This document shows, one piece after another, positions 1,468-41,513 of a stretch of DNA of 64,000 bases. A program made the translations under genes and the position numbers. The notes below the pieces were generated by a model. It saw only the letters and a program-made list of their open reading frames with translations. It was not told the DNA's origin and did no database searches. The stretch's first letter is position 1, and each line of letters starts with the position of its first letter. The stretch is from a virus. The stretch is from the IMG/VR virus record IMGVR_UViG_3300020469_000001, positions 41,273 through 105,272 of that record; one strand, written 5' to 3'.

Positions 1468-1656
1468 CTAAGTCCAACGAGGTGGCTCGTCTGGACACTC
1501 AGCCCATCGTAGTTTTGTTTTGAGGGGCATAAAACAGTGACAAATCTTACAAGTTTTCCAAAACTTACTATAGTTTGGACACTGTTCACAAATCTTTAAT
1601 CTTTCTTTATGTGACTTTTTATTCGAAGTCCGCGTACCAATTCGTTCCATATTCAT
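1468..1656 (-). CDS. small Cys-rich (probable metal-binding) protein
   Basis: CxxC...CxxCxC...CP...W pattern. Confidence 0.65.
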   Translation of the reverse strand: MNMERIGTRTSNKKSHKERLKICEQCPNYSKFWKTCKICHCFMPLKTKLRWAECPDEPPRWT

Positions 1657-2122
1657 TTAATTTATTAGTCCACCATTCTTCGTTATGTAGACTTACATGA
1701 AAATTAGTACCATCACTAAACTTTTTAATTGCTGGTTTAGTATCAATATGAAAATACACAGAGTTTCCTAAAAAGAATATTGAGTGTAGTACACTATCGA
1801 CTTCTTCTGGTAGTATGTGTTCCATCACATCTACACATAGTACTAAATCGAAAAAGTTACATTTATATCCTGCTAGTTTATTATACTTAGCTACGTAAGG
1901 ATCGTATAGTGTTGGCATTGGTATACCCCAATCTTCGTGTACATTCTGTCGAGTGTACTGCCAACCTTTACCACAACCAAAGTCTAAAACATTGACAGGA
2001 TTTACTCTGTCTATAACTTTCTTAATTATATCTTTGTTCTTTACTGTTGTTCTACCACTCATTGTAGTAGTGTTTTCATGAACCCAGACATACTCTTTAG
2101 CAAGTCTTTCCTTATCGATCAT
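1619..2122 (-). CDS. class I SAM-dependent methyltransferase
   Basis: VLDFGCGKG motif I; FDLVLCVDVMEH. Confidence 0.85.
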   Translation of the reverse strand: MIDKERLAKEYVWVHENTTTMSGRTTVKNKDIIKKVIDRVNPVNVLDFGCGKGWQYTRQNVHEDWGIPMPTLYDPYVAKYNKLAGYKCNFFDLVLCVDVMEHILPEEVDSVLHSIFFLGNSVYFHIDTKPAIKKFSDGTNFHVSLHNEEWWTNKLNEYGTNWYADFE

Positions 2123-2725: not shown

Positions 2726-4510
2726 CTATTTTCGTATGGTATAGATTTTTACAGGTTCTGACTTACCTTTTACAGTTACCTCGTCAAGAAACTCATAATC
2801 ATAACCATCTACTAAACTGTGCTCAGATATAATTAAGTCAGCATCATATTCTTTACAGCTAGATTCTAGTCTAGCAGCCAGATTGACGCTATCACCAAGA
2901 ACGCTGTAATCAAAGCGAGTGCTGCTGCCAAAGTTTCCAACGACACAGTCCCCGGTGTTGATTCCCGCTCCTGTATTAATCTCATCCAAGCCTTCTTCTC
3001 TGAGTTTTTCATTTAACTCCTCCAATGCCACTCTCATTTCGAGAGCTGCCTTTGTTGCATTTTCGACATGATTCTCGTCTGGACACGGCGCTCCCCAAAA
3101 TGCCATGATGCAATCTCCCATATATTTGTCTATTGTTCCCCCATGCTTGAGAATAATCTCAGTCTGATTATCAAGGAAACGATTAATGAGGCTCGTAAGT
3201 CCTTGTGGATTCTTTTGGTATTTTTCCGAAATCGGGGTAAATCCTCGTATATCAGAAAAAAGAAAAGTGAGTCGTGAAGTTAACCCACCCAATCTCAGTA
3301 ATGTTGGGTCGTCCTGTAATTTTTTTACTAAGTCGGGACTAACGTATGTCCCAAATTGTTGTTTGATTCGAAGTTTCTGTTGATACTCCGATAGGAAACT
3401 CAGAAAGGTATGAATACTCCAAAAGAGAACGGATATAATTACGATTCCACTAACGTCAAGCAAGTAAGAAGATTTATATAGATGCCAGGCTCCATATAAA
3501 CTTCCTCCAGTTATCAGTAATAGTGCGGGAACGGAAAGCCAGACTGACCTTGATGCAAAAGCAAGTATTATCAGTGCTAGTAGTGTTGCGATGATTTCTG
3601 CTCCTGTAGCCCAAGTTGGTTGGCTAGGTGCGGTTCCTGTAATTAGATTGTGTAGAATGTTCGCTTGGATTTCGTGTGGGTATTTAGCCCCCGCAGGGGT
3701 CGGCACTGGGTTAGTTATACCCTCTGCAGTCGTGCCGAATATAACGAACGGAGCTTCTATTGGTTTCTTAAGAAACTCCAGTCCGCTTTGTTTGTAAAAC
3801 TTCGTATTCCAATTTAAAAAGATACGACCATTCGCATCTGTATTCATCAGTGGGTAGTTTGGGATTCTTATCCAATCAATACCTTCTGGTGTTGTTTTTA
3901 GCTGGTACGAAGGATCGTTTACGGCGACTCTTAAGAGTTCCAAGGCGAAACTCGGGTAAAGTTTTGACTGCACGTTTACGACTAGGGGAATGCGACGAGT
4001 AACCCCGTCTATTTCCGGCGTAGCGGTTACTACTCCGATTCCCTTTGTTTTTGACTCCAGCGTAGACGCGGTAGGTAAAATTCCTGGTAGTTCGAATAGC
4101 CATGGTAATGGGTCCTCTCCTAACTGAGCAGTACCTACATGAGGGTTTGTCCCAGTTACTTGTGTCGATGCTGCTGAAGCAAGGACTGTTGGTATGTATT
4201 GCATTCGCATAGCAAAGTAATTATCATAATCTTTGCCACGAATGTCGGGGTTTGGCATCAAGATTGTAAAACCTGGTACGGCCTGTGTAGTAGTGATTAA
4301 GTCACCAAACACTGACCTAGGTAATGGCCATCCGCCATAAGTCTGTAGAAAATCTTCATCAAGATCAACTATCAGAATGTTCTCGTTCTGTACTGGTTCG
4401 GTATTCATGATTAAGTAGTCGTAACCAATTAGTTCGACTCTTTGCATGACACCAGGATTCCATATAAGCAATCCCATAAACAGTACTATTGTGATAACTT
4501 TATTTAGCAC
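2726..4510 (-). CDS. CHASE2-domain class III adenylate cyclase
   Basis: CHASE2 motifs (IVDLDE, GWPLPR, DGVTRRIPL), three TM helices, cyclase motifs FSDIRGFT, DKYMGD, DYSVLGDSVNLAARLES; K/D residues suggest ATP specificity. Confidence 0.92.
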   Translation of the reverse strand: MLNKVITIVLFMGLLIWNPGVMQRVELIGYDYLIMNTEPVQNENILIVDLDEDFLQTYGGWPLPRSVFGDLITTTQAVPGFTILMPNPDIRGKDYDNYFAMRMQYIPTVLASAASTQVTGTNPHVGTAQLGEDPLPWLFELPGILPTASTLESKTKGIGVVTATPEIDGVTRRIPLVVNVQSKLYPSFALELLRVAVNDPSYQLKTTPEGIDWIRIPNYPLMNTDANGRIFLNWNTKFYKQSGLEFLKKPIEAPFVIFGTTAEGITNPVPTPAGAKYPHEIQANILHNLITGTAPSQPTWATGAEIIATLLALIILAFASRSVWLSVPALLLITGGSLYGAWHLYKSSYLLDVSGIVIISVLFWSIHTFLSFLSEYQQKLRIKQQFGTYVSPDLVKKLQDDPTLLRLGGLTSRLTFLFSDIRGFTPISEKYQKNPQGLTSLINRFLDNQTEIILKHGGTIDKYMGDCIMAFWGAPCPDENHVENATKAALEMRVALEELNEKLREEGLDEINTGAGINTGDCVVGNFGSSTRFDYSVLGDSVNLAARLESSCKEYDADLIISEHSLVDGYDYEFLDEVTVKGKSEPVKIYTIRK

Positions 4511-5046
4511 GATACATTTACGCCTGTAATATGATGGTAATTAAAATCTCTGCATTCTGAAGCCTCTTCATACAAGTAAAAGTTTCTTATTATTACTGCT
4601 GCAAGAATCCAGTTTGTAAGCACCATTTGCTCCTCTTCTAAGTTAGCTGCTATAATTGGAGTTAATACAGATTTGTGTAGTAAAAATTCTGCAGCAGACG
4701 GCTTTTCCGGCAGTAAAAAGTTGGCTTCCTTTATGTGCGGGTTGTTTCTAGTAAACACATATGAAGTTGTCATGTCAACCGCATTGAGAATATAGTAAGC
4801 TCTTAGTGTTCTCTTAGTGGGTTCATTGTTTATCTTTATAAATCTAAGACGCTTTTTCTCAGCAGCTTCTATTTGAACAGAGTCTTGCTTCATCTGTTCA
4901 TAGTTGAATGGAGTTTCAGGTAGTGTTAAATCTAAGCTATCCGCTTGATTGTTTGACGCTAATAGTAACATCGGCACCATTACCAACGACAACATTGTAA
5001 GCTTTGCCATCTTGTTCCAATATAATGTTATATCCAGTTTGTCCAT
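4504..5046 (-). CDS. hypothetical protein in curli/cyclase operon (true start probably near 4970)
   Basis: ORF overlapping both the FecR and cyclase genes; hydrophobic N-terminal segment. Confidence 0.6.
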   Translation of the reverse strand: MDKLDITLYWNKMAKLTMLSLVMVPMLLLASNNQADSLDLTLPETPFNYEQMKQDSVQIEAAEKKRLRFIKINNEPTKRTLRAYYILNAVDMTTSYVFTRNNPHIKEANFLLPEKPSAAEFLLHKSVLTPIIAANLEEEQMVLTNWILAAVIIRNFYLYEEASECRDFNYHHITGVNVSC

Positions 5047-6040
5047 TTATATCTAACCTTACACTTTGATTTACTTCTCGAATGAGAGTAAGAAACTCTG
5101 CATCTCCAAAAGTTGTAATCTGTGTGCTTGCATCTTGTCCGAATGTAGTACCTTTTAAATCTACAGGTGCTGCTCCAACGGATGCGAGTTCATTATTATC
5201 TAGTTCATCTACTGATTCTATTATTTCTAGTAGATCTTCCAGGAAGTTAGTTCCTAGGTAGTCTATGTCAAGTTCTCGAAAGTCTTCCTCTACTTCTAAT
5301 AAGTCTACATCGAGCCCGTCGTAAGCGAGGTAGTCGATATCAAGAATATTAGTACCAGAGTCGTCACTTCCAGACGATCCCTCATTTTGTTGTATTTCTT
5401 CATTTTTCTTAGGTGGTGAGACAATCAAAAGATTGTCTATCAGATCTAGTGTTAAGTCGAGGATAACAGGTTTAGTAGGACTCTGTTCCCATACAGTTGT
5501 AACAGTAGATTGATACGGTTTATTTAGTATTACCTGTCCTAAAGCAGTTGCTACTACAATCTCGCCAGAGGGCAGTCCGTTTGCATCTGGTAAGAGTATC
5601 ACCAATGACTTACCGAACTCGTCAACGGTAACAGTAAAGTCTGTTCCTCGAATTGCGATTTGTGCTGTTGGTGTACTGATGTTGATATTCTGTTTGTTTA
5701 TCTGTCCTATCTTACCAGTAATAAATCGAGCAGTGCCACTTGCAAATTGCATACTCATCTTTGACTTGTTTGGATTTGGGTCAAAGATTACTTCGTCTAT
5801 AACAAGTTTGCTATGCTCTGTGAGTCGAACTTGACTATCGTCTATGAATGTGATACCTAGTCGCCCATTAGCTGTACGCACATCATCCATTTGTTGAATG
5901 TCTTGTTCTAAAGTTGCAGGTAAGGTGTCATCTCGAATGACGGCACCTTGCCCGCGTAGTTCCGTGATTGCGCCTATATCAGCAAGAAGTGGATGTACCA
6001 CCATCAGACTGAATAACACAGATGTTACTGTTTGACGCAT
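4937..6040 (-). CDS. FecR-domain protein with signal peptide and acidic C-terminus
   Basis: DDVRTANGRLGITFIDDSQVRL...GTARF...TPTAQIAIRGTDF FecR signature. Confidence 0.85.
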   Translation of the reverse strand: MRQTVTSVLFSLMVVHPLLADIGAITELRGQGAVIRDDTLPATLEQDIQQMDDVRTANGRLGITFIDDSQVRLTEHSKLVIDEVIFDPNPNKSKMSMQFASGTARFITGKIGQINKQNINISTPTAQIAIRGTDFTVTVDEFGKSLVILLPDANGLPSGEIVVATALGQVILNKPYQSTVTTVWEQSPTKPVILDLTLDLIDNLLIVSPPKKNEEIQQNEGSSGSDDSGTNILDIDYLAYDGLDVDLLEVEEDFRELDIDYLGTNFLEDLLEIIESVDELDNNELASVGAAPVDLKGTTFGQDASTQITTFGDAEFLTLIREVNQSVRLDINGQTGYNIILEQDGKAYNVVVGNGADVTISVKQSSG

Positions 6041-6692
6041 CGCTCTCTATTTTTAACCAATCGAGTGCTAGTGTTGATTTTTGTTGTATTTCAATAGTAT
6101 TTGTACTACCATTTAAATCCAAGTAAAAATAACCTGCATCACTCGATGAGGCTCCTTGACCAGTTTTGGTCAATTCCATTGTATTACTATCTCCTAAGAT
6201 ATCCATATACGCAGTATAGTAGTCAGAGTCTATATCGAATGTTAAATCGTTACTGTCTCCGTCTAGTATTAGATCTAAGTCTAAATAACTTGCTCCTGCA
6301 TTTTCACCGATGTCCCAATCAAAAACGTTTGAGCTACCTGTTACATCTACATTGATGTTTGCAAAGTCAACTGTATTTAGTCCTGTAGTATCCATAGAAA
6401 ACTCGAATGTATTTGAATCTCCATCAAATTCGAAGAAACCAGTAAAGTTTTCGCCTAATACACCGTCAGTTAGAAATTTATTTGAAGAACCAATCTGGTT
6501 AATATCCAATGTCCATGTACCACCGTTTAAGATAGCTTTTGTCATAGAACCGCTTGTTGCATCGTCACCACCAATAAGGTTGTTCGATCCTAGTTGCTCT
6601 AAGTCAATATTGACATTGTTTCCAGTTTGATCTATGTAAATTTCATTGTCTGCATATAAACCAAAGGATAGTAATAAAAGTAATATTCTCAT
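5979..6692 (-). CDS. curlin-like secreted beta-solenoid repeat protein
   Basis: Short signal peptide; repeated Q/DxGxSN units (QTGNN, QLGSNN, QIGSSN, DGDSN, TGSSN, DGDSN, LGDSN, NGSTN); lies directly after csgG. Confidence 0.75.
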   Translation of the reverse strand: MRILLLLLSFGLYADNEIYIDQTGNNVNIDLEQLGSNNLIGGDDATSGSMTKAILNGGTWTLDINQIGSSNKFLTDGVLGENFTGFFEFDGDSNTFEFSMDTTGLNTVDFANINVDVTGSSNVFDWDIGENAGASYLDLDLILDGDSNDLTFDIDSDYYTAYMDILGDSNTMELTKTGQGASSSDAGYFYLDLNGSTNTIEIQQKSTLALDWLKIESDASNSNICVIQSDGGTSTSC

Positions 6693-7558
6693 TACTTCTC
6701 TCCCCAGTACTTCCAGTACCCTTTCTCTTTGCCGTCTTTTATCAATTGAACTACTGCAGTTTCAAGCGCTGCTTGTATTGCAATAGATTTACTTTCATTC
6801 ATTGCAGTTCCGCTTTCAAACTCTACGAGCTTTGTGCCTTCTGCTATAAACCTAAAGAAGTCATTTGATACTCCGACAGAGAGTATTTTCTTTGACGTAA
6901 GGATTTCCATTAAGATCTCTCCTGTACTCACAGAAACTAGTCTTAATGAGACCACTACGGTATCCTCACGATATTGCTTGGAGTTACCAATGCCTAAATA
7001 TCTAGCACCTATACCTCCTGTTAATAGATTAGTGTTATAATCTACTATTCCCCCTTCAATGATTAATCCAGCAAACAGTAGTGGAAGCTGCTCGTCTTCA
7101 TCATTAAAACTTTGTCTAGTCTGTCTTATTAATTGTCTTTCTCTAGTTAAGTGGTCAAGGCCACCTCTTTCGACAACTTTGAAGAATCCAGACTGTTTGA
7201 GTGCTCTTATGAGGTATGTCTCGGGAGCCATAGTAACAGCAGTACTGAAACTAGCTATACCATCGACACTCTTTCTTTGTCCTGTTGAATCTGTAAATTT
7301 GTATACGGCCACCACGGGATATCGTGATGGTTGTGGAATTGTTTTAATTGCATCTGTAACTGGCGTATTGATAATAGCATCTCCAGAAAAGCATTGCGCT
7401 TTTCCGATAATAGTTACAACATCTTTATAGTCTTCGTCTGGATTTGTTAAGCAAGGTGACACATATTTGTAATGTGTAAAGTTTGCACAACTAGCCAGTA
7501 GGAAAACCGAAGTCGCCAATAGGGATTGTAATGACAGTCGTTTCACCAGTAGCCTCAT
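6692..7558 (-). CDS. csgG: curli secretion channel lipoprotein CsgG
   Basis: Lipobox LASC; VAVYKFTDSTGQRK, FSTAVT, FKVVERGGL, GGIGARYLGIG, VSLRLVSVSTGE motifs. Confidence 0.92.
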   Translation of the reverse strand: MRLLVKRLSLQSLLATSVFLLASCANFTHYKYVSPCLTNPDEDYKDVVTIIGKAQCFSGDAIINTPVTDAIKTIPQPSRYPVVAVYKFTDSTGQRKSVDGIASFSTAVTMAPETYLIRALKQSGFFKVVERGGLDHLTRERQLIRQTRQSFNDEDEQLPLLFAGLIIEGGIVDYNTNLLTGGIGARYLGIGNSKQYREDTVVVSLRLVSVSTGEILMEILTSKKILSVGVSNDFFRFIAEGTKLVEFESGTAMNESKSIAIQAALETAVVQLIKDGKEKGYWKYWGEK

Positions 7559-7985
7559 TAAATATGGTCATTGTAATTGATATACCATCTGATGTCCATG
7601 TAATCAGATTATCAAACAACATGAATGATCCTTCCGATGCAGGGTTTTCTCCGAACAACTGGTCTACTAGCTGTCGAGATAACTGTGCGTATACTCTACT
7701 CTCAAAGTTCTTTATAAATCTTGCGAGAGTACTATTATTTTCCTCTCGTTCTGCGGCTTCTTTGAGTGCTTTAATTTCTGCGGCGATTGCCTCTTTTCTT
7801 GACATCTCTTGTGAGTCAATTGTAAGATAGTGGCTAGATGTACCTACACCACTGAATGAAGGATTTTTAAATCCAAACTTTATTTCATCCGCGTTTAAGT
7901 CTGCTGCAATTGCTATAAAGCTTAATATAAATAAAGCTCCTATAACACTATTTGCAACTCTGTTATTTAGTTTTCTTTCGTTCAT
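7491..7985 (-). CDS. csgF: curli assembly protein CsgF
   Basis: Signal peptide then FGFKNPSFSG, matching the CsgF N-terminal motif; C-terminal TGETTVITIP; upstream of csgG. Confidence 0.85.
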   Translation of the reverse strand: MNERKLNNRVANSVIGALFILSFIAIAADLNADEIKFGFKNPSFSGVGTSSHYLTIDSQEMSRKEAIAAEIKALKEAAEREENNSTLARFIKNFESRVYAQLSRQLVDQLFGENPASEGSFMLFDNLITWTSDGISITMTIFNEATGETTVITIPIGDFGFPTG

Positions 7986-8226
7986 TTTCTTTTAACTGTA
8001 AAACTGTGTCCAGTTTCTTTTGCAGTCGTATCATGTCATTATCCAACATTCTTATCTGGTCGATAAGTTGTAGTATGGTAATTTTCATTTCTTCGATTGC
8101 TGGGTCTATCTTCTCGGTCACTGTAGTCCATACGAAGTATACGAAATATCCAAGTCCAACCATTGCAACAACTGGAAATCCAAATTGTTGTATGGCATCA
8201 ATCACGTCTTGCATCGATACTCCCAC
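7963..8226 (-). CDS. small single-TM protein, paralog of 8198..8494
   Basis: IQQFGFPVVAMVGLGYFVYF...IRMLDNDMIRL. Confidence 0.7.
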   Translation of the reverse strand: MGVSMQDVIDAIQQFGFPVVAMVGLGYFVYFVWTTVTEKIDPAIEEMKITILQLIDQIRMLDNDMIRLQKKLDTVLQLKENERKKTK

Positions 8227-8494
8227 TTTCTACAAAGTTTTCTGCTCTTGCTATTTTTTCTAAGTCTGGTGCAAGTCCCAGCGCGGATGATACACTCATA
8301 TCTATTTTAATCATATCATTGTTCATAACTTTGATACGAGTAATTAACATCTTAGAGATTCCTCGAACTTCTTCTGTATCTCCAACAACGTCATCCATAA
8401 TCTTTCTTATGATGAGAAATATAAAACCACCCATAAACAGTGCTGCAGCGATAGGTGCTCCAACTTGTCCGATTACGTCAAATATCTCACTCAT
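8198..8494 (-). CDS. small single-TM protein, paralog of 7963..8226
   Basis: IGQVGAPIAAALFMGGFIFL...IKVMNNDMIKI. Confidence 0.7.
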   Translation of the reverse strand: MSEIFDVIGQVGAPIAAALFMGGFIFLIIRKIMDDVVGDTEEVRGISKMLITRIKVMNNDMIKIDMSVSSALGLAPDLEKIARAENFVESGSIDARRD

Positions 8495-8730
8495 AAGTAC
8501 TTAATCATTTCTTGATTGATTGCCATACATCCAAACATGCCAAATAGTACAGTAACCTGTATAATACTTGCATAAGTAATTTGTCTCATTGGATGCATAT
8601 CTGTTAACTTCTCTATCATGCTTTCTGATGGCGATAGGTTAACTATTTGTAATGCTTTCCTAGAAGCCGATGCTTTCTCCGCATCCGCATCTATATGTTT
8701 CTTTTGGGTTGTTAAATCTGAATTCTTCAT
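8491..8730 (-). CDS. hypothetical membrane protein
   Basis: ORF with C-terminal hydrophobic stretch, overlapping its neighbours. Confidence 0.5.
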   Translation of the reverse strand: MKNSDLTTQKKHIDADAEKASASRKALQIVNLSPSESMIEKLTDMHPMRQITYASIIQVTVLFGMFGCMAINQEMIKYL

Positions 8731-8977
8731 TTAGTCCGTCCGTGTGCCAATCAATAGTCATGCCTTCTAAATAAGGCGCAGAGTTAGGGTCTACCCTAAA
8801 TCTAATCTTGCCCCAATCTATTACCAGATCATCTGAATAATTTTTAGGGTTAAAAGCAAAAAGATACTCCATACCACCGCAGCCACCCCCAGTAATACCA
8901 AGTCTAAAAACAAAGTTGTCTTCTGCGCTCGCTTTCTGTATAAGTTTAGTATACGCCTCATTAGTAATTTCTATCAT
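8660..8977 (-). CDS. iscA: HesB/IscA/ErpA-family Fe-S cluster carrier
   Basis: GGGCGGMEY and C-terminal RCGCGES motifs. Confidence 0.9.
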   Translation of the reverse strand: MIEITNEAYTKLIQKASAEDNFVFRLGITGGGCGGMEYLFAFNPKNYSDDLVIDWGKIRFRVDPNSAPYLEGMTIDWHTDGLNEEFRFNNPKETYRCGCGESIGF

Positions 8978-9023: not shown

Positions 9024-9440
9024 TCATAAATTTGTGTATTTTTCTGAACATTTATCCTCCCAGTTCTGAATAGCCTTTCTTATTGCGTCTTCGGCTAGAA
9101 CTGAGCAGTGAATCTTTATTGGCGGCAACTGTAGTGCCTCGGCAATATCTTTGTTCTTAATTTCTTTTGCTTCTTCTATAGTAAGTCCTTTTAACATATC
9201 TACAAACATTGTAGAAGACGCGATAGCTGAACCGCATCCATATGTTTTAAATTTTACATCAATGATTTTTTCTTGTTCGTCAAGTTTAAGTTGTAACTTC
9301 ATGACATCACCACAAGCGGGTGCTCCTGTCATTCCTGTAGCTATATCGGGGTCGTTCGGGTCAAAACGGCCTACGCTAAATTGCTTAGGACTGTTCAGTA
9401 CTCCTTCGAACCTTTCGATAACTTCTTTACTATATGCCAA
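9024..9440 (-). CDS. iscU: Fe-S cluster scaffold IscU
   Basis: MAYS, GAPACGDVM, FKTYGCGSAIASS, LPPIKIHCSVLAEDA. Confidence 0.95.
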   Translation of the reverse strand: MAYSKEVIERFEGVLNSPKQFSVGRFDPNDPDIATGMTGAPACGDVMKLQLKLDEQEKIIDVKFKTYGCGSAIASSTMFVDMLKGLTIEEAKEIKNKDIAEALQLPPIKIHCSVLAEDAIRKAIQNWEDKCSEKYTNL

Positions 9441-9639: not shown

Positions 9640-10092
9640 TTATTTCAACAACTTCTCCATCAGTTTGCCATAGTTGCCTTGCCCGAAAGGGAGTTCGTTG
9701 ATCTGTACATTTGTCTGATTTTTGACATTTGAGGTTTTTGCTTTTTCTAGTTCTGCCATAGCTTTGATTTCATCCATACGCATTTTGTGTGCCATTTGTA
9801 TTAAATCCGCTAGGTCTTTGTTAGTATAAATTTGAGATTCTTCGCTCTCTTCTAGTTTGCGCTCAATAATATCGTCAAGTGTGTTTGCTAATTTAAAACG
9901 ATTTCTGTAACCTGTATCTAGATACACTTGATCGATGTACGCTTTGATTTCCCGTTTTCCTAAAAATTCTTGCACGGTGTTTTCATCTATTTTCATTCTG
10001 GCGCACACGGCTGGTATGCTTCCTAATTCTAGATAGTTGTTCGCTATTTCAAGCCCTTCTGGACTCATCTTGGTTACAATTTCATTTTTCAT
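9640..10092 (-). CDS. T5-type terminase small subunit
   Basis: SPEGLEIANNYL, GYRNR, IERKLEE, AHKMRMDE, NQTNVQIN recall T5 TerS; start set at ATG 10092, just downstream of a promoter. Confidence 0.8.
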   Translation of the reverse strand: MKNEIVTKMSPEGLEIANNYLELGSIPAVCARMKIDENTVQEFLGKREIKAYIDQVYLDTGYRNRFKLANTLDDIIERKLEESEESQIYTNKDLADLIQMAHKMRMDEIKAMAELEKAKTSNVKNQTNVQINELPFGQGNYGKLMEKLLK

Positions 10093-10098
10093 ATTTTG

Positions 10099-10127
10099 AT
10101 TATACCAAATTTTAATCCTCGTGTCAA
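10099..10127 (-). promoter_or_regulatory. sigma70 promoter for terS operon (leaderless)
   Basis: TTGACA-17 bp-TATAAT, with ATG 6 nt downstream. Confidence 0.8.
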
Positions 10128-10264
10128 GAAGTATTTTCGTATGCATCGTCACGATGCTCTGTGCGCGTCTTTTTACTCTTTTCCAAAAAATCCAAAAGTC
10201 GTACGCGCAGGGGGGTGTGGGCGAGACAGGGGAGCAAGGTCTACTAACCCCCCTATCATATATG

Positions 10265-10447
10265 CTAGACTGTGTCAACTGTTCTTTCAAGAAAACTGCC
10301 AAAGGGCGATTCTTGAAGGCTCACTACTTGACATCTATTATCAAATCTTTTCTTTTGCTCATCACAGATTTTTTCTGCTATTGCTTTTGCTTCTTCGTCA
10401 TTCTCACACCAAATATTTAATGAGAATTCTACTCTATATCTTTCCAT
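10265..10447 (-). CDS. hypothetical protein
   Basis: ORF with GGAGG RBS. Confidence 0.6.
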   Translation of the reverse strand: MERYRVEFSLNIWCENDEEAKAIAEKICDEQKKRFDNRCQVVSLQESPFGSFLERTVDTV

Positions 10448-40810: not shown

Positions 40811-41513
40811 ATGGACAGACGAAAGAACTCAACAATTAGTTGATTTCGTTGGAAGTGAGTCACCTATCTCACAAAACACAGTTGCTAACGCAGCTGATGA
40901 GTTAGAAACATCTGTAAGAAGTGTTTCTTCTAAACTCAGAAAAATGGGTTTCGAGGTTGAACTAGCTTCAGCTTCAGCTTCTAAATCATTCTCAGATGAG
41001 CAAGAAGCTACATTAAGCACATTCGTGCAAGACAATTCTGGCGTATACACATATGCTGAAATTGCTGGAAACTTTGAAGGCGGACACTTTAGTGCGAAGT
41101 CAATTCAAGGAAAAATCCTTTCTATGCAGTTAACAGAACATGTTAAACCTGCACCTAAAGTTGAGACTGTTAAGTCTTACAACGAGGAAGAAGAAGGGCA
41201 ATTTGTATCATTAGTAAATGATGGTGCATTTATTGAGGACATCGCTGAAGCCCTAGGCAGAAGTGTAAACTCAATCAGAGGTAAAGCATTATCTCTTCTC
41301 AGAGCAGGAGAAATCAATGCTATTCCTAAGCAGAAAGAAACCAAAGGTTCAAGCAAAGCTGATCCTTTAGCAGGTGTCGACATTGACGGCATGACTGTTG
41401 AAGAAATTGCTGATGAAATCGGCAAAACAGTAAGAGGCGTGAAAACAATGCTTACTAGAAGAGGCTTACAGTGTGCGGACTATAACGGCGCTGCTAAAAA
41501 AGAAATAGGCTAA
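40797..41513 (+). CDS. T5 D5-like DNA-binding protein
   Basis: RSVSSKLRKMG, SIRGKALSL, KTVRGVKTMLTRRGL...DY; synteny. Confidence 0.85.
   Translation: MALPKWTDERTQQLVDFVGSESPISQNTVANAADELETSVRSVSSKLRKMGFEVELASASASKSFSDEQEATLSTFVQDNSGVYTYAEIAGNFEGGHFSAKSIQGKILSMQLTEHVKPAPKVETVKSYNEEEEGQFVSLVNDGAFIEDIAEALGRSVNSIRGKALSLLRAGEINAIPKQKETKGSSKADPLAGVDIDGMTVEEIADEIGKTVRGVKTMLTRRGLQCADYNGAAKKEIG

Follow-up and report, generated by a model that had tools for sequence, protein, structure and literature searches.

Why should a bacteriophage carry, in a single run of genes, parts of a curli export apparatus together with a membrane-bound adenylate cyclase? The question is raised by a stretch of 64,000 nucleotides (positions 41,273 to 105,272, referred to here as the window) of the IMG/VR virus record IMGVR_UViG_3300020469_000001, in which eight open reading frames (ORFs) on the minus strand, at positions 2726-8494, each abut or overlap their neighbour. 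An earlier note, made from the letters of the window alone, had described this run as two paralogous transmembrane (TM) proteins, CsgF, CsgG, a curlin-like repeat protein, a FecR-domain protein, a hypothetical protein and a CHASE2 adenylate cyclase; all eight ORFs are present where it placed them, and its account of the gene content is borne out by Pfam and PHROG matches (Table 1). PHROG families are matched by six of the eight proteins, so that phage relatives of the cassette are already catalogued, and every protein of the module has a hydrophobic leader, a lipobox or TM helices, as read from the translations. The composition of the cassette is already published and the block is not new; our additions are a T5-like lineage as its carrier, revised readings for three accessory genes and a clearer derivation from two modules. 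We give an even chance to the working model that the locus is a T5-like version of the published cassette, in which the FecR-domain protein would pass on to the CHASE2 domain a state of the export pore, of its subunit or of the cell surface and so set the level of cyclic AMP (cAMP).

CsgF and CsgG were reported in pelagimyophages by Zaragoza-Solas et al. (PMC7029224), and Buchholz et al. (PMC9004378) proposed a lysis-timing pore for the phage Melnitz. The full region was described by the Worden laboratory (mSystems 2022, PMC9599517) in HTVC023P-type podophages and in myophages, in the order 'histidine kinase' (one or two), CsgF, CsgG, CsgA/B-like protein, FecR, second CsgA/B-like protein and adenylate cyclase; the paper also treats how the region is distributed globally, that it is expressed and that bacterial curli operons lack it. 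The co-linear CsgF, CsgG, curlin-repeat, FecR and cyclase genes that characterize this viral type VIII secretion system (T8SS) with FecR and adenylate cyclase are all found in the window, which has gene families and order in common with the pelagiphage region (CsgF, CsgG, curlin-repeat protein, FecR and the CHASE2 cyclase, preceded by one or two small membrane proteins and with an optional slot before the cyclase). The complete set, FecR and cyclase included, is already in PMC9599517 and is annotated both in the Pelagibacter phage HTVC008M and in Melnitz. In HTVC008M, which is T4-like, gp011-gp019 have the same order, with protein identities to the window of 32-49%, and gp97-gp104 of the Methylophilales phage Melnitz are syntenic, encoding two small proteins, CsgF, CsgG, a curlin-repeat protein, a FecR-domain protein, a further curlin-repeat protein and the cyclase; Melnitz is a T4-like phage of OM43, whereas the carrier of the window is T5-like. 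The Melnitz paper treats CsgG and CsgF alone, as a lysis-timing pore, and states that the fibre genes are missing (PMC9004378); nonetheless, the GenBank record of Melnitz annotates curlin-repeat proteins, and these exceed the Pfam cut-off. The window differs from the pelagiphage regions in that its carrier is a 105-kb T5-like phage with terminal repeats, in that the slot between FecR and cyclase encodes a DUF5658-like membrane protein rather than the second curlin of the T8SS papers, and in that the cassette lies in a unit with small terminase and iron-sulfur (Fe-S) assembly genes. A T5-like carrier is not mentioned in PMC9599517, PMC7029224 or PMC9004378, and none was found in a literature search.

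The viral record, that of a marine phage, is complete, at 105,272 bp with direct terminal repeats. Judged from its DNA polymerase (45-46% identical to those of T5-like phages), its small terminase subunit (41%), its replication genes, among them SbcC-like, DnaB-like and NAD-ligase genes, its size and its repeats, the reading of the carrier as a T5-like (Demerecviridae-like) phage, already proposed in the earlier note, holds. The same note regarded the complete set as unusual in a T5-like phage, and this we could not sustain. Relatives of the FecR-domain protein occur on 497 viral contigs, the best 80 of which were fetched, and 82 viral loci were compared in all. About 45 of the 80 contigs have the flanks of the window, with the small terminase, NifU-like and IscA-like genes upstream and a 65-residue gene downstream, and carry the cassette at the same place. 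The T5-like copies, which have amino-acid identities of 55-95%, form one clade in the trees of CsgG (support 0.95), the cyclase (0.997) and, one unassignable fragment aside, FecR. Their common backbone and single clade indicate that the cassette is normal for the T5-like lineage, and the trees point to a single acquisition, probably followed by long vertical descent. The remaining fetched contigs have neither T5-like nor T4-like flanks; beside the cassette of one of them lies an ORF with distant similarity to podophage virion proteins. A synteny check across phages went in favour of the block as a unit: the gene order is kept in nearly all of the 82 viral loci and in HTVC008M and Melnitz, FecR always lies between curlin and cyclase in the viral loci, and the linkage, conserved in three phage backbones, is far beyond chance.

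Among cultured phages, no near-identical DNA turned up when the region was compared by megablast with 50,697 phage records, and protein searches of the phage records gave matches only in HTVC008M, Melnitz and unrelated fragments. When species-representative genomes were scanned with the FecR profile, three contigs of metagenome-assembled genomes (MAGs) were matched, all of them phage DNA. The full cassette is present on the MAG-binned phage contigs L084 (NZJW01000021.1), L086 (NZIO01000054.1) and L085 (NZMJ01000081.1), two of them binned as Candidatus Pelagibacter and one as Maricaulis; L084 has T5-like flanks, and the Maricaulis MAG has two copies of the cassette, on contigs C32 and C42. The binning of such contigs may be mis-binning or may hint weakly at the host, and as a clue to the host of the T5-like phages the T5-like contig in a Candidatus Pelagibacter MAG is likewise a weak hint.

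Of the two units into which the cassette can be divided, the first resembles the E. coli curli system CsgBAC-CsgDEFG in its CsgG homology, its CsgF domain and its subunit, predicted to be secreted and to consist of strand-turn-strand rungs. The CsgG homolog matches E. coli CsgG structures (2e-42) over residues 72-283 and has the lipobox L-A-S-C at residues 21-24; its constriction loop is changed at two of the three residues with respect to the E. coli protein, Phe being retained while Asn is replaced by Ser and Tyr by Val. After its hydrophobic leader, the CsgF homolog has the segment FGFKNPSFSG, which resembles the N-terminal pore-binding segment F-x-F-R-N-P-x-F-G-G of E. coli CsgF; no direct sequence match was found to the CsgF chains in the PDB. 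The curlin-like gene is single in the phage genome and, in contrast to the E. coli subunits, its product is acidic and has only a first rung that resembles the Pfam curlin repeat, at a sub-threshold level; the repeat profile (Curlin_rpt) is matched, weakly, by 11 of 12 relatives. An AlphaFold2 model of this protein, with a predicted local distance difference test (pLDDT) score of 82, is a regular strand-turn-strand solenoid with two strands per rung, and its top structural match is the Pontibacter CsgA 8c50_A (Z 17, 20% identity). Foldseek gave no PDB match to the model below E 0.05, and the family profile gave a weak match to TbpB and nothing else among PDB sequences. The phage, unlike E. coli, lacks CsgE, CsgC and CsgD; the earlier note saw no csgE, csgC or CRP-like gene in the window, and their absence extends to the whole phage genome, there being no match to CsgE (PF10627) or CsgC (PF10610), at E up to 1, in the complete 105 kb. 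CsgE and CsgC are also absent from alphaproteobacterial curli loci (PMC9599517).

The pore genes have been given another role. In the proposal made for Melnitz from modelling and synteny, CsgG and CsgF would be repurposed as a gated lysis-timing channel of the pinholin or secretin kind, with the small TM and coiled-coil proteins acting in the manner of holins and the sensor-cyclase setting the timing, and the absence of curli genes from the host clades fits such a use (PMC9004378). The small TM proteins are indeed holin-like in size and topology, and in a language-model search the nearest named atlas clusters of small membrane protein 2 were YvrJ and Holin_BhlA (0.86), both below 0.9 and so sub-threshold leads only. 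However, the secreted curlin-like subunit and CsgF with its pore-inserting motif, both needless for a bare channel, are kept in every lineage. Holins, moreover, act on the inner membrane, and CsgG is a pore of the outer one; nor did the PHROG and Pfam matches include an endolysin or spanin next to the cassette. We consider a lysis-timing role quite improbable.

The two small membrane proteins, each with a single N-terminal hydrophobic helix followed by a coiled coil, are 26% identical, and their description as paralogs is confirmed by BLASTP (E 4e-12) and by their common family, phrog_18771. They occupy the gene position expected for the 'histidine kinase' genes of the published region (PMC9599517), a label that we reject for them: at 87-98 residues they are too short, they have no kinase domain, and no match to HisKA or HATPase_c was obtained at E up to 10. 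In one T5-like relative (locus L008, 7090-7848), an extra ORF of 252 residues lies between the two genes. The third accessory gene fills the slot between FecR and cyclase. It was right to list a gene here, but the label 'hypothetical protein' can now be replaced by that of a DUF5658-like small membrane protein. Its family is fast-evolving, with invariant residues D91, E107, N109, P116 and K125 (alignment A2), and PF18902 (DUF5658) is matched by nine of its 15 members, at best with 1.4e-5, the copy in the window having no match of its own. The slot is variable: it encodes a second curlin-repeat protein in the T4-like phages, that of HTVC008M with a PA14 domain, and is empty in podophage-like contigs. 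In another T5-like relative (L025, 11440-12010), two ORFs of about 100 residues each, with no Pfam match, stand in the slot before the cyclase.

The second unit consists of the FecR-domain protein and the CHASE2 cyclase. In the former, a hydrophobic leader is followed by the FecR domain (residues 52-141), a conserved beta region to about residue 200, an acidic linker and a small C-terminal beta domain. The architecture is not that of a FecR-type anti-sigma factor as in E. coli FecIR, because the FecR domain begins directly after the leader and leaves no room for a cytoplasmic sigma-binding domain. The cyclase has its CHASE2 domain (PF05226) at residues 8-315 and its catalytic domain (PF00211) at 413-592, with hydrophobic stretches at about 5-22 and 305-375, and its closest solved relative is Pseudomonas aeruginosa CyaB (3r5g, 2e-37). 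When the sequence was aligned to this structure, the catalytic motifs, earlier described as intact, were confirmed as such: the metal-binding Asp420 and Asp466, the substrate-binding Lys462 and the transition-state residues Asn543 and Arg547 are invariant in 13 sequences (alignment A4), and Ser536 stands at the position of the class IIIb Thr, where relatives have Ser or Thr. Structural prediction was less informative for the partner. The AlphaFold2 model of the FecR-domain protein was unusable (mean pLDDT 35), and a complex prediction of mature FecR with the periplasmic domain of CHASE2, made from alignments of 13 rows, scored 0.00 and is counted neither for nor against binding.

One specific form of contact was considered. 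The C-terminal stretch of about 45 residues in the FecR-domain protein (4937-5070), RLDINGQTGYNIILEQ...VTISVKQ, can be set against the last rung of the curlin-like protein (5979-6130), YLDLNGSTNTIEIQQ...ICVIQ, and the FecR proteins of HTVC008M and Melnitz have a similar I-x-I-x-Q ending. Profile-profile comparison of the FecR C-terminus with the curlin family (hhalign) gave no significant resemblance (probability 1.2%, E 0.044), and no member of the FecR family matched Curlin_rpt. Conceivably the C-terminus, as a curlin-like rung, docks at the CsgG/CsgF pore, either on curlin subunits or on the fibre as it grows, and the FecR domain at the other end of the protein contacts CHASE2; fibre assembly or surface contact would then be converted directly to cAMP. 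We regard this as a long shot. If it were true, the cassette would serve as a mechanosensor or contact sensor encoded by a phage, and a defined input would be assigned to CHASE2 domains for the first time.

The origin of the second unit is suggested by bacteria. In a sample of 401 alphaproteobacterial genomes, FecR-like matches, covering N-terminal residues 20-200 only, were obtained in 138, and strong full-length matches to the CHASE2 cyclase, down to 1e-147, likewise in 138. By their coordinates, at least 24 pairs of the two are separated by no more than about 3 kb, and the pairing was recovered in 17 of 20 such regions that were fetched, which supports the view in the earlier note that FecR genes neighbour CHASE2 cyclases in bacteria. 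Such pairs are also known from the literature: cyaD1-smc02177 of Sinorhizobium meliloti, in which signal perception did not require the FecR-domain gene (PMC5498481), and the BiofilmReg operon of Burkholderia, with a LysM-FecR protein and a CHASE2 kinase (PMC5192318). As in the window, the gene of a CHASE2 membrane sensor adjoins that of an exported FecR-domain protein, but CsgG and CsgF are not neighbours of the bacterial pairs, and FecR occurs with an OmpA-family neighbour or with RTX or cadherin-like parts. The FecR-domain partners range from 153 to about 2000 residues, one having RTX and Calx-beta repeats and another cadherin-like domains, and the second element of the loci varies, being OmpA-like, RTX, cadherin-like or a SpoIIE output. 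In locus L124 (8948-12838), a FecR-domain protein of 153 residues, an OmpA-family protein and a CHASE2 adenylate cyclase follow one another, the order of FecR, one gene and cyclase being that of the phage; L126 (5630-11735) encodes a CHASE2-SpoIIE phosphatase, a 464-residue protein without assigned identity and a FecR-domain protein of 903 residues. Profiles of the viral genes found no CsgG, CsgF, curlin or small-protein homolog in 40 bacterial regions of about 8-20 kb (the 20 paired regions and the 20 with the best FecR matches). As the bacterial pairs occur without CsgG, the phage cassette looks like a fusion of a curli export module with a pre-existing FecR-CHASE2 sensor pair.

In a rival reading, the two units are functionally independent passengers, acquired and transferred as one block: curli fibres would serve aggregation, 'sibling capture' or phage exclusion, and FecR with CHASE2 would separately reprogram host metabolism through cAMP in answer to an unrelated periplasmic cue. 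The occurrence of FecR-CHASE2 pairs without CsgG in all 40 bacterial regions is in keeping with such independence, as is the lack of the cyclase in some viral contigs, and ideas of fibres and aggregation have been put forward (PMC7029224, PMC9599517). Against it, FecR always stands between curlin and cyclase and the order has survived transfer among three phage backbones, while cultures infected with Melnitz showed no aggregation (PMC9004378). We therefore think independent passengers unlikely. The bacterial relatives bear also on the suggestion (PMC7029224, PMC9599517) that the pore stands open to let in solutes on which replication depends, such as iron chelates or cofactors, FecR being a sensor of the iron-citrate type. 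The absence from the genome of CsgE, the periplasmic gate, and the Fe-S assembly genes just upstream in the transcription unit of the cassette are in accord with an open pore of this kind, but the FecR-domain protein is not a FecR-type anti-sigma factor, its bacterial relatives beside CHASE2 cyclases carry RTX and cadherin-like extensions rather than TonB-system partners, and the curlin gene is left unexplained; uptake seems to us very improbable. Taken together, the conserved curlin gene and the position of FecR between curlin and cyclase fit these three alternatives, lysis timing, independent passengers and uptake, less well.

In the model that we favour, in which FecR would relay the state of the export unit to the cyclase, the first unit would be a curli-type exporter comprising the lipoprotein pore CsgG, its cap CsgF and a single curlin-like solenoid subunit, installed in the envelope of the infected cell by the Sec and Lol pathways of the host. 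CsgG and CsgF would form an outer-membrane pore through which the curlin-like subunit would be exported to the surface. The second unit would be an envelope sensor pair of the bacterial type, the exported FecR-domain protein informing the CHASE2 domain of the inner-membrane protein about conditions at the pore, in the subunit or on the surface, and this input would set cAMP synthesis by the cytoplasmic class IIIb domain. Because the phage encodes no receptor of its own, the cAMP would act on receptors of the host; the small membrane proteins, the DUF5658-like one included, would be accessory. A trans-envelope circuit from surface to cAMP is thus plausible and can reasonably be inferred from where the parts are predicted to lie and from the conservation of their linkage; the export of curlin, the contact between the parts, the control of the cyclase and the target of cAMP are all inferences within it.

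Several observations weigh against this model. The curlin assignment is the weakest of our calls, the protein of the window scoring 14.6 bits with Curlin_rpt against a cut-off of 20.7, and the CsgA match of its model is effectively tied with SufD-type helices, which are unrelated beta-helices. Some podophage-like contigs keep CsgF, CsgG, curlin and FecR and have no cyclase, from which it follows that export does not need the cyclase. The complete 105-kb genome encodes no cNMP-binding (cyclic nucleotide-binding) domain, so that the cAMP output is without a phage-encoded target; of two Pelagibacter-labelled MAGs, one gave two cNMP-binding matches and the other, which is smaller, gave none. On the other side, contigs from the RNA libraries of two marine studies match parts of the cassette at 99-100%, one of them, of 1.26 kb, spanning csgG, the curlin gene and the start of fecR, which is compatible with expression but possibly reflects carried-over DNA instead; in two runs the cyclase had almost no RNA cover, which is uninformative with contig data.

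Table 1. Genes of the cassette and features of its flanks, with positions in the window.
Feature	Positions	Strand	Length, matches and remarks
Small membrane protein 1	8198-8494	minus	98 aa; N-terminal TM helix, then coiled coil; phrog_18771, 2e-22
Small membrane protein 2 (paralog of protein 1)	7963-8226	minus	87 aa; phrog_18771, 3e-26
CsgF homolog, predicted cap/adaptor of curli pore	7491-7985	minus	164 aa; PF10614, 3e-19, 69.8 bits
CsgG homolog, predicted outer-membrane lipoprotein pore	6692-7558	minus	288 aa; PF03783, 4e-49, 167 bits
Curlin-like protein, putative secreted beta-solenoid	5979-6692	minus	237 aa; about 8 G-[DS]-S-N rungs; two conserved C-terminal Cys
FecR-domain protein, predicted to be exported	4937-6040	minus	367 aa; PF04773, 2e-11; phrog_37870, 4e-71
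DUF5658-like small membrane protein, in variable slot X between FecR and cyclase	4504-5046	minus	180 aa
CHASE2 sensor fused to class IIIb adenylate cyclase	2726-4510	minus	594 aa; PF05226, 5e-32; PF00211 (Guanylate_cyc), 9e-21
Protein with C-terminal hydrophobic helix (tail-anchored)	8491-8730	minus	79 aa, from translation; no Pfam match
IscA/ErpA-like Fe-S cluster biosynthesis gene, upstream of cassette	8660-8977	minus	PF01521, 1e-14; conserved in T5-like contigs
NifU/IscU-like Fe-S scaffold gene, upstream of cassette	9024-9440	minus	PF01592, 8e-40; conserved in T5-like contigs
T5-like small terminase subunit, first gene of leftward unit	9640-10071	minus	phrog_3802, 2e-37; 41% identical to those of T5-like Vibrio and Salmonella phages
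Sigma70-type promoter, likely start of leftward unit with cassette	10099-10127	minus	TTGACA-17-TG-TATAAT; 12/12 consensus matches
Second sigma70-type promoter, 4 nt past cyclase stop	2694-2722	minus	12/12, with TG

The surroundings of the cassette suggest how it is transcribed. Two perfect promoters bracket the unit, and the cassette would thus be co-transcribed with the small terminase and the two Fe-S assembly genes; the second promoter marks the start of the next unit and hence the end of the cassette. The first lies within a long TTG-started ORF, 9640-10302, in which the terminase PHROG match begins only at residue 78, so that the real start of the small terminase is probably near 10071. 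The 79-residue protein is possibly a ninth member of the cassette: its homologs occur in T5-like contigs and, in some non-T5 contigs (L048, L051 and L059), lie between the small TM gene and csgF. Downstream, a 167-residue ORF (1619-2122, minus strand) has a weak methyltransferase-domain match just below the cut-off (PF13489, 6.6e-6), and no tRNAs were found in the 64-kb window.

The cassette is abundant in ocean viromes, its FecR-domain protein forming more than 6000 clusters at 90% identity in metagenomes, and it would give infected cells an outer-membrane secretion pore and a predicted cAMP-making sensor. Such a pore and sensor are reported to be lacking in SAR11 and OM43, on which the cultured carrier phages grow. 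The case for selection of the whole block as a unit is strengthened by its fixation in T5-like phages, the third lineage of carriers, and the comparison with bacteria resolves the block into two parts, one for export and one a FecR-CHASE2 sensor. The compact phage version of the cassette could be a convenient system in which to find what CHASE2 domains sense.

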